64,000 nt of DNA from the NCBI RefSeq assembly GCF_022846255.1, contig NZ_AP025682.1. The stretch is one strand, 5' to 3'. Position numbers and translations under genes: made by a program. The stretch comes from Escherichia coli. Lineage in GTDB: Bacteria > Pseudomonadota > Gammaproteobacteria > Enterobacterales > Enterobacteriaceae. Each line of letters begins with the position of its first letter. Positions within the stretch are counted from its first letter, which is position 1. Under the pieces are notes generated by a model that was not told the origin of the DNA, made no database searches, and worked only from the letters and a program-made list of their open reading frames with translations. Of this stretch, positions 7,129 to 11,431 are shown piece by piece.

Positions 7129-8378
<1,250 letters not shown>

Positions 8379-8555: not shown

Positions 8556-9011
8556 ATGCAAGAAGGGCAAAACCGTAAAACATCGTCCCTGAGTATTCTC
8601 GCCATCGCTGGGGTGGAACCATATCAGGAGAAGCCGGGCGAAGAGTATATGAATGAAGCCCAGCTGGCGCACTTCCGTCGTATTCTGGAAGCATGGCGTA
8701 ATCAACTCAGGGATGAAGTCGATCGCACCGTTACACATATGCAGGATGAAGCAGCCAACTTCCCGGACCCGGTAGACCGTGCAGCCCAGGAAGAAGAGTT
8801 CAGCCTCGAATTGCGTAACCGCGATCGCGAGCGTAAGCTGATCAAAAAGATCGAGAAGACGCTGAAAAAAGTGGAAGACGAAGATTTCGGCTACTGCGAA
8901 TCCTGCGGTGTTGAAATCGGTATTCGCCGTCTGGAAGCGCGCCCGACAGCCGATCTGTGCATCGACTGCAAAACGCTGGCTGAAATTCGCGAAAAACAGA
9001 TGGCTGGCTAA
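8556..9011 (+). CDS. dksA: RNA polymerase-binding transcription factor DksA
   Basis: Within ORF 8538..9011; ATG 8556 preceded by AAGGAGAA; [32 protein letters not shown]4 zinc finger [25 protein letters not shown]; 151 aa. Confidence 0.93.
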
Positions 9012-9068: not shown

Positions 9069-9974
9069 TTCAAAGAGATGACAGACACACACTATATTGG
9101 TCGCTTCGCCCCCTCTCCTTCCGGCGAGCTTCATTTTGGCTCTCTGATTGCCGCGCTTGGCAGCTATTTACAGGCTCGCGCCCGGCAAGGTCGCTGGCTG
9201 GTACGCATTGAAGATATCGACCCGCCTCGTGAAGTTCCCGGTGCCGCAGAAACTATCCTGCGCCAGCTGGAACATTACGGCCTGCACTGGGACGGCGACG
9301 TTCTCTGGCAATCGCAACGTCACCACGCCTATCGCGAAGCACTCGCCTGGTTACATGAGCAAGGACTAAGTTATTACTGCACCTGCACGCGTGCGCGTAT
9401 TCAAAGCATTGGCGGTATTTACGACGGTCATTGCCGGGATTTGCATCATGGACCAGACAACGCCGCAGTACGTATCCGCCAGCAGCATCCGGTCACCCAG
9501 TTTACTGACCTGCTGCGAGGCATTATTCACGCCGACGAAAAACTGGCACGGGAAGATTTTATTATTCATCGCCGTGATGGTTTGTTTGCCTATAACCTGG
9601 CGGTGGTGGTGGATGATCACTTCCAGGGCGTGAGCGAAATTGTCCGCGGGGCAGATTTGATCGAACCGACGGTGCGGCAAATCTCGCTGTACCAGCTTTT
9701 TGGCTGGAAAGTGCCAGATTACATCCATTTACCGCTGGCGCTTAATCCACAAGGCGCTAAACTTTCCAAGCAGAATCATGCGCCTGCGTTGCCGAAAGGC
9801 GATCCGCGCCCGGTGTTAATCGCGGCACTTCATTTTCTGGGTCAGCAGGTAGAAACACACTGGCAGGATTTCAGCGTCGAGCAAATCCTTCAGTCAGCCG
9901 TCAAAAACTGGACGCTGACCGCCGTGCCTGAGTCGGCAATTGTAAATTCAACATTCTCAAATGCGTCATGCTGA
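9048..9974 (+). CDS. gluQ: Glutamyl-Q tRNA(Asp) synthetase (truncated GluRS paralog)
   Basis: ORF 9048..9974 (308 aa) [33 protein letters not shown] (class I HIGH-like motif), KLSKQ motif near C-terminus. Confidence 0.85.
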
Positions 9975-10033
9975 GCTATGATTAGCCGCTATTTTTTTGT
10001 CCTGAATGATGTTTGACACTACCGAGGTGTACT

Positions 10034-11431
10034 ATTTTTACCCGAGTCGCTAATTTTTGCCGCAAGGTGCTAAGCCGCGAGGAAAGCGAGGCTGAACAGG
10101 CAGTCGCCCGTCCACAGGTGACGGTGATCCCGCGTGAGCAGCATGCTATTTCCCGCAAAGATATCAGTGAAAATGCCCTGAAGGTAATGTACAGGCTCAA
10201 TAAAGCGGGATACGAAGCCTGGCTGGTTGGCGGCGGCGTGCGCGACCTGTTACTTGGCAAAAAGCCGAAAGATTTTGACGTGACCACCAACGCCACGCCA
10301 GAGCAGGTGCGCAAACTGTTCCGTAATTGCCGCCTGGTGGGTCGCCGTTTCCGTCTGGCTCATGTGATGTTTGGCCCGGAGATTATCGAAGTTGCGACCT
10401 TCCGTGGACATCACGAAGGTAACGTCAGCGACCGCACGACCTCCCAACGCGGGCAAAACGGTATGTTGCTGCGCGACAACATTTTCGGCTCCATCGAAGA
10501 AGACGCCCAGCGCCGCGATTTCACTATCAACAGCCTGTATTACAGCGTGGCAGATTTTACCGTCCGTGATTACGTTGGCGGCATGAAGGATCTGAAAGAC
10601 GGCGTTATCCGTCTGATTGGTAACCCGGAAACGCGCTACCGTGAAGATCCGGTACGGATGCTTCGCGCGGTTCGTTTTGCCGCCAAATTGGGCATGCGCA
10701 TCAGCCCGGAAACCGCCGAGCCGATCCCACGCCTGGCAACCTTACTGAACGATATCCCACCGGCACGTCTGTTTGAAGAATCGCTGAAACTGTTGCAAGC
10801 GGGCTACGGTTACGAAACCTATAAGCTGCTGTGTGAATATCATCTGTTCCAGCCGCTGTTCCCGACCATTACCCGCTACTTCACGGAAAATGGCGACAGC
10901 CCGATGGAGCGGATCATTGAACAGGTGCTGAAGAATACCGATACGCGTATCCATAACGATATGCGCGTGAACCCGGCGTTCCTGTTTGCCGCCATGTTCT
11001 GGTATCCACTGCTGGAGACGGCACAGAAAATTGCTCAGGAGAGCGGCCTGACCTATCACGACGCTTTCGCACTGGCGATGAACGACGTGCTGGACGAAGC
11101 CTGCCGTTCACTGGCGATCCCGAAACGTCTGACTACGTTAACCCGCGATATCTGGCAGTTGCAGTTGCGTATGTCCCGTCGTCAGGGTAAACGCGCATGG
11201 AAACTGCTGGAGCATCCTAAGTTCCGTGCGGCATACGACCTGTTGGCCTTACGAGCCGAAGTTGAGCGTAACGCTGAACTGCAACGTCTGGTGAAATGGT
11301 GGGGTGAGTTCCAGGTTTCCGCGCCGCCAGACCAAAAAGGGATGCTTAACGAACTGGATGAAGAACCGTCACCGCGTCGTCGTACTCGTCGTCCACGCAA
11401 ACGCGCACCGCGTCGTGAGGGTACCGCATGA
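10034..11431 (+). CDS. pcnB: Poly(A) polymerase I
   Basis: ORF track 10013..11431 (TTG); conserved N-terminus (M)[13 protein letters not shown] begins at ATT 10034-10036 with GAGG 6 nt upstream, giving 465 aa; nucleotidyltransferase motif [17 protein letters not shown]; basic C-terminal tail. Confidence 0.85.

Follow-up and report, generated by a model that had tools for sequence, protein, structure and literature searches.

The pcnB gene of Escherichia coli, which encodes poly(A) polymerase I (PAP I), is almost certainly translated from a non-canonical AUU codon, located at positions 10034–10036 on the plus strand of the 64,000-nucleotide stretch of DNA analysed here (the window). This start is already known, having been established experimentally in 2002, and the reference annotation already uses ATT. 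The anatomy of the start region, the exclusion of neighbouring TTG and GTG codons by comparison, and the selection on the ATT codon come from the present analysis; taken from the literature, as related in passages of the papers cited below, are initiation at AUU and the limit that it sets on translation (Binns & Masters 2002), together with the small number of PAP I molecules per cell and the toxicity of excess PAP I. A lone ATT codon is trivial, and what exceeds chance is its invariance, at the start position, in 80/80 species among the matches listed in our comparison.

Anatomy of the pcnB locus and its start region

The pcnB coding sequence spans positions 10034–11431 (+) and specifies 465 amino acids plus a stop, as given by the RefSeq annotation and the NCBIfam profile. 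The window strain is close to E. coli ATCC 11775, not K-12; the window and ATCC 11775 are 100% identical across window positions 9800–10400, with the first difference at 7413. The RefSeq/PGAP pcnB of ATCC 11775 (L001, 2735–4132) translates, with an offset of 7299, to 10034–11431 and an ATT start, so that the curated coding sequence begins exactly at ATT 10034. K-12 MG1655 (b0143) agrees in the length of the coding sequence (1398 nt) and in the gap that separates it from gluQ (59 nt), and the RefSeq coding sequence begins at ATT in ATCC 11775, K-12 and strain 2017-02-2CC alike. Of 5426 complete E. coli genomes, 5424 contain this region, and 5416 of these agree exactly over a 63-nt segment covering the start; the single variant examined differs at position −2, with neither the ATT nor its annotation affected. 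The protein scores 997.1 bits against the PcnB equivalog profile NF008634 (cut-off 702), with residues 1–464 aligned to profile positions 1–468 of 469 and the ATT-encoded residue 1 at profile position 1. It also matches TIGR01942 (523 bits), with coverage from residue 31, and is identical to the chains of PDB entries 3AQK–3AQN (3AQK, 3AQL and 3AQM among them) over residues 28/29–442, the crystallised PAP I chains lacking the N-terminal 27 residues.

The surrounding gene order is sfsA, dksA, gluQRS, pcnB, folK and a fimbrial gene, which includes the dksA-gluQ-pcnB-folK neighbourhood that marks PcnB; distant relatives likewise have a tRNA-synt_1c gene upstream of pcnB and an HPPK gene downstream. 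Poly(A) polymerase activity has been established biochemically for the identical K-12 protein. At the 3′ end, the pcnB stop and the folK start overlap as ATGA (11428–11431), an arrangement that points to translational coupling; among the 78 folK loci recovered from the 80 listed species, the gene begins with ATG in 38 and with GTG in 31. At the 5′ side, the gluQ stop is TGA at 9972–9974. The gluQ (gluQRS) start itself differs between RefSeq annotations: in K-12 (b0144) the gene is 927 nt, or 308 amino acids, corresponding to ATG 9048, and in ATCC 11775 it is 897 nt, or 298 amino acids, from ATG 9078. Neither gluQ start has a good Shine-Dalgarno sequence (−1.7 kcal/mol at 9078), and 67 of the 75 loci recovered from the 80 listed species have ATG at the position aligned with 9078.

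Direct reading of positions 9700–10300 in translation places ATT 10034–10036 at the first codon of the conserved PcnB N-terminus, as the original prediction, made from the sequence alone, had proposed; the RefSeq start and position 1 of NF008634 agree, and all the coordinates in that prediction proved correct. In the pcnB frame, a closing TGA (10007–10009) is followed by TGT, then by TTG (10013–10015), then by ACA CTA CCG AGG TGT ACT and finally by the ATT. Codons 2–12 read TTT ACC CGA GTC GCT AAT TTT TGC CGC AAG GTG (10037–10069) and form a translated N-terminal motif with unusually strong synonymous-site conservation among the 80 species listed. The Shine-Dalgarno element had been described as GAGG, 6 nt before the ATT. 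Its position and spacing are right, with GAGG at 10024–10027 and a TGTACT spacer, but the element is really the 6-nt GAGGTG at 10024–10029, spaced 4 nt from the ATT. No in-frame ATG occurs between the TGA at 10007–10009 and codon 52, where direct reading and the ORF list place the first one (10187–10189). The earlier statement that the frame offers no ATG therefore holds for the upstream region and the vicinity of the N-terminus, but not for the downstream sequence, which contains this ATG and also a GTG at codon 12 (10067–10069). Further in-frame GTG codons are found at 10118 and 10124 (codons 29 and 31).

We scored each candidate start by the predicted pairing of its 20 upstream nucleotides with the 3′ end of 16S rRNA. 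ATT 10034 scores −7.2 kcal/mol, within the top 2% of 3000 random window positions; for scale, the neighbouring dksA and folK genes score −9.2 and −6.2 kcal/mol. TTG 10013 and GTG 10067 score +0.4 and +0.5 kcal/mol, respectively, meaning that neither has a Shine-Dalgarno sequence, and ATG 10187 scores −3.9 kcal/mol. These values, together with the absence of any other canonical codon, bear out the claim that TTG 10013 is the only upstream in-frame alternative and that it lacks a convincing ribosome-binding site. They also contrast with published statements, in passages of PMC3561954 and another paper, that the pcnB ribosome-binding site is "poor": by complementarity and spacing, the site looks good.

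Comparison across relatives and the rival starts

A scan of a collection of species-representative genomes recovered at least 80 pcnB loci, all from Enterobacteriaceae, at 86–100% protein identity. Among the 80 species in the matches listed, the start codon is always ATT and is always preceded by GAGGTG at fixed spacing, while the sequence farther upstream in these 80 loci is indel-rich and out of register, the indel lengths not being divisible by three. The nearest in-frame upstream stop lies anywhere between −15 and −177 across the listed species, and 43 of the 80 lack any in-frame ATG, GTG or TTG between that stop and the ATT. From codon 2 to codon 11 the amino acids are invariant in all 80 listed species and the nucleotides vary at only five sites, all of them third positions and all synonymous; this confinement indicates that codons 2–11 are translated. 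Moreover, pcnB has 14 invariant Ile columns in these 80 species, and codon 1 is the only one served by a single codon, the other 13 mixing ATT, ATC and ATA. Selection thus acts on the third base of codon 1 for some reason other than the coding of Ile. An AUU at the conserved 5′ edge of the reading frame, no conserved upstream start, a correctly spaced Shine-Dalgarno sequence and selection on the codon itself are among the features of an AUU-initiated gene, and these were all found here.

To look beyond the family, we fetched the DNA of homologs at roughly 48–80% protein identity. Nine of these carry the N-terminal motif, namely Pantoea, a 1.08-Mb genome that is likely a reduced-genome symbiont, Alishewanella and six others that include metagenomic genomes. 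The first codon of the motif is ATT in 9/9, in five of them as a tandem ATT ATT, and each of the nine has a Shine-Dalgarno-like element scoring between −4.8 and −9.3 kcal/mol. The NCBI annotation of the 1.08-Mb genome likewise starts pcnB at the ATT. The peptide motif is kept in these relatives with conservative protein-level changes, and codon 12 in the nine is GTC, CTG or ACC. The motif is missing from a Vibrio-like genome, whose pcnB apparently starts at ATG, and in more remote homologs a Met immediately precedes a basic amphipathic motif that is equivalent, e.g., MIKKLFKK. The ATT pattern in distant relatives agrees with a remark on the phylogenetic conservation of the pcnB AUU by Binns & Masters, as related in a passage of PMC3561954, and so is not new.

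Against this background, a start at the upstream TTG (10013–10015), which would give a 472-residue protein and corresponds to both an older assignment and the choice of a simple ORF finder, is extremely improbable. This TTG is the first canonical start codon after the in-frame stop, and the introduction of PMC3561954 still writes of a UUG initiation codon for pcnB, which is a remnant of the earlier view. An extension of this kind is found on database proteins from Salmonella and Pantoea (P0003 and P0015), and two subspecies of Salmonella enterica, diarizonae and arizonae (L021 and L022; locus positions 2480–2482), have an ATG at −21, where E. coli has TTG 10013. This ATG explains the database entries that begin MTLPRCAIFTRV (P0003) and makes an upstream mis-start especially tempting in Salmonella. 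Yet TTG 10013 has no Shine-Dalgarno sequence and lies only 4 nt after the stop, and a TTG is present at −21 in just 26 of the 80 listed species, 43 having no canonical upstream in-frame codon at all. In-frame stops at −15 to −24 in nine of the 80 listed species contradict initiation at this position, as do the frame-shifting upstream indels, and both RefSeq and the NCBIfam profile begin at the ATT instead. Independently of the literature, the comparison rejects TTG 10013 and supports the ATT.

Initiation at the downstream GTG of codon 12 (10067–10069), with the preceding conserved stretch serving as a non-coding regulatory leader, deserves equally little credence as the main route. In its favor, this GTG is invariant in 80/80 listed Enterobacteriaceae, gene callers begin at codon 12 in several entries (P0122, MLSREES..., and matches with 93% coverage), and the nucleotide conservation of codons 1–12 exceeds what coding needs. 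The codon has no Shine-Dalgarno sequence, however, and the translation of codons 2–11 excludes it as the main start: the probability that five variable sites would all fall at third positions by chance, C(10,5)/C(30,5), is about 0.002, and all five are synonymous. In addition, the peptide motif persists in the distant relatives whose codon 12 is GTC, CTG or ACC, and the Met placed directly before the equivalent motif in more remote homologs also argues against a start at codon 12. As judged from the codon's conservation, some additional initiation at GTG codon 12 may nevertheless occur beside the AUU.

A further proposal concerns a product made in addition to that of the AUU, namely a second, N-terminally truncated PAP I initiated at ATG codon 52 on a transcript from the sigma-S promoter pS1; we consider it unlikely. 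Passages of PMC2939334 describe a pS1 that is active downstream of the AUU, as well as two bands in anti-PAP I western blots, and the authors raise a truncated isoform there, but they themselves call it unlikely. A weak Shine-Dalgarno-like AAGG precedes ATG codon 52, but it lies only 2 nt from that codon. Conservation does not support the isoform, because codon 52 is ATG in only 23/80 listed species and a Leu codon in the other 57. The truncated product would also lose residues 29–51, which are conserved, form part of TIGR01942 (from residue 31) and are present in the crystal structures. We infer that ATG codon 52 is the historical start "+1(b)" of Liu & Parkinson 1989.

Two other sets of candidates were considered and set aside. 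The GTG codons 12, 29 and 31 and ATG codon 52 are not conserved starts. Codon 12 is not GTG outside the Enterobacteriaceae, and codon 29 (10118–10120) varies within them: 73/80 listed species have ATG there, Escherichia has GTG, apart from one E. coli representative with GTA, and Atlantibacter has ATT. Some genera could use codon 29 for secondary initiation, but it shows no conservation as a start. An out-of-frame mini-ORF of eight codons (MYYFYPSR*) runs from GTG 10027 to TAA 10051–10053 and overlaps the ATT. It has no Shine-Dalgarno sequence of its own, the amino acids specified by its second and third codons differ between species, and it is probably meaningless.

Conservation beyond coding and the upstream promoter-like block

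In the 80 listed species, codons 1–12 of pcnB (10034–10069) have a mean codon entropy of 0.17 bit, versus about 1.0 elsewhere in the gene. Thirteen pcnB columns use a single codon throughout; six of these fall in codons 2–12, or seven when the ATT is counted (hypergeometric P = 5.5e-8 for codons 1–12). The same pattern was observed at codons 1–12 of dksA (8556–8591), where 9/9 invariant columns are single-codon in the 80 listed species, and the synonymous freeze is absent from the first 12 codons of gluQ and folK in these species. The freeze in pcnB and dksA possibly reflects structure in the initiation region, a regulator site or something else. As a separate observation, a second cluster of single-codon columns occurs at codons 41–44 (10154–10165; CGC AAA GAT ATC), comprising R41, K42 and D43, with I44 encoded by ATC in 78/80 listed species; it sits between the ATT and ATG codon 52, where the published pS1 is said to be.

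The synonymous-site conservation of 10024–10069, together with the persistence of the ATT and Shine-Dalgarno sequence in distant Gammaproteobacteria and in the 1.08-Mb genome, might reflect a regulatory element, so far undescribed, by which the synthesis of PAP I is tuned, a suggestion that we make tentatively and regard as rather unlikely. Such an element could be a hairpin that sequesters the Shine-Dalgarno sequence with the AUU in its loop, or a site for a trans-acting RNA or protein. When folded as a single sequence, the start region is no more stable than its shuffles (z = +0.81). Folding of the alignment returned a 6-bp hairpin, CG-GGUG/UACC-CG, with the AUU in the loop and a predicted energy of −5 kcal/mol, and this alignment fold contains no compensatory changes in the 6-bp hairpin. 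A weak CGAGGUG/UACCCG hairpin could reconcile the published "poor" site with its good complementarity, an idea that is at present unsupported.

Upstream of the start region, a promoter-like TTCTCA-17 nt-TATGAT arrangement (9954–9982, +) lies by the gluQ stop and is the sole sigma-70-like match in 9600–10300, making it a candidate for the published major promoter pB. The block GCTATGATTAGCCGCT (9969–9995) extends from about the gluQ stop into the −10-like TATGAT and then into the GC-rich TAGCCGC. Many Enterobacteriaceae have the combination of TATGAT and TAGCCGC upstream of pcnB, as do Pantoea and one more relative (L084; GCTATGATTAGCCGC), and another relative carries a one-base variant of it (L083; CTATGATAGGCCGC). 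In the Vibrio-like genome the counterpart is TATTAT with TAGCGCC. The 9969–9995 block is probably the core of pB with a stringent-type discriminator. An apparent "IIS" upstream of the ATG called in the Vibrio-like genome was rejected as a start motif, as it corresponds to the −10 block of the promoter.

Mechanism, published precedents and annotation

Selection of the initiation site by the Shine-Dalgarno sequence, mismatched reading of AUU by the initiator tRNA and the disfavouring of such complexes by initiation factor IF3 are general features of bacterial translation initiation. Applied to pcnB, the 6-nt GAGGUG at optimal spacing would place the 30S subunit on the AUU, which the initiator tRNA would then decode with a third-position mismatch, so that the protein would begin with (f)Met and not with Ile. 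Because IF3 disfavours mismatched AUU complexes, few initiations would succeed, and the inefficiency of initiation would limit each cell to a few tens of PAP I molecules. This scarcity would matter because excess PAP I is toxic. The part assigned to IF3 on the pcnB mRNA specifically is drawn by analogy with infC, the gene for IF3 itself.

According to passages of PMC2939334, bioRxiv 10.1101/063800, PMC3561954, PMC5499595 and PMC4447247, all citing Binns & Masters 2002, pcnB is translated from a non-canonical AUU that limits its expression; the translational limitation is named in the title of the cited work and again in PMC3561954 and PMC4447247. The suggestion that the sequence fits a known limitation by an inefficient start codon is thus in line with what these papers state. 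PMC2939334 describes the AUU start along with the pcnB promoters pB, p1, p2, pS1 and pS2. Our search for initiation-site profiling literature that mentions pcnB returned only a paper on S. aureus. The gene and site of Binns & Masters 2002 (Mol Microbiol 44:1287, PMID 12068810), K-12 pcnB (b0143), are the same as those studied here, with no difference of substance.

Passages of 10.1101/063800, and likewise of PMC5499595 and PMC4447247, state that non-canonical starts are confirmed in just two E. coli genes, infC and pcnB, and in infC, too, the AUU limits expression. The two genes differ in that infC is autoregulated, since its own product IF3 discriminates against AUU (PMC5499595). PAP I is not an initiation factor, and by the same analogy sensitivity to IF3 would tie pcnB to the level of IF3 and not to its own product. 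A comparable case described in PMC4447247 is ebpA of Enterococcus faecalis, in which, as in pcnB, a rare ATT start attenuates expression and which was mis-annotated at a downstream ATG; unlike pcnB, it encodes an unrelated pilus-tip protein of a Gram-positive organism.

The expectation that naive gene callers would mis-start pcnB was correct for plain ORF finders and for several database entries, but not for the NCBI pipeline, which already has the right start. The mechanical ORF list for the window begins the pcnB frame at TTG 10013 (472 amino acids), as predicted. A protein search with the N-terminal fragment returned mostly partial proteins, which are informative on gene-caller starts only; mis-starts in the databases include MTLPRC..., MPLSRC... 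and entries that begin at codon 12. The region serves as a reminder for annotation: ORF finders and many entries make pcnB too long, from a TTG or ATG farther upstream, or too short, from codon 12 or 29, and curated pipelines start it at the ATT.

The present counts, comprising an ATT in 80/80 listed species, no canonical alternative upstream in 43/80 and selection on the third base of the codon, provide independent computational support for the genetic result of 2002. They bring no change to the accepted picture of pcnB biology, in which the AUU start is a way to keep PAP I scarce and thereby to avoid the toxic over-polyadenylation of tRNAs and mRNAs.
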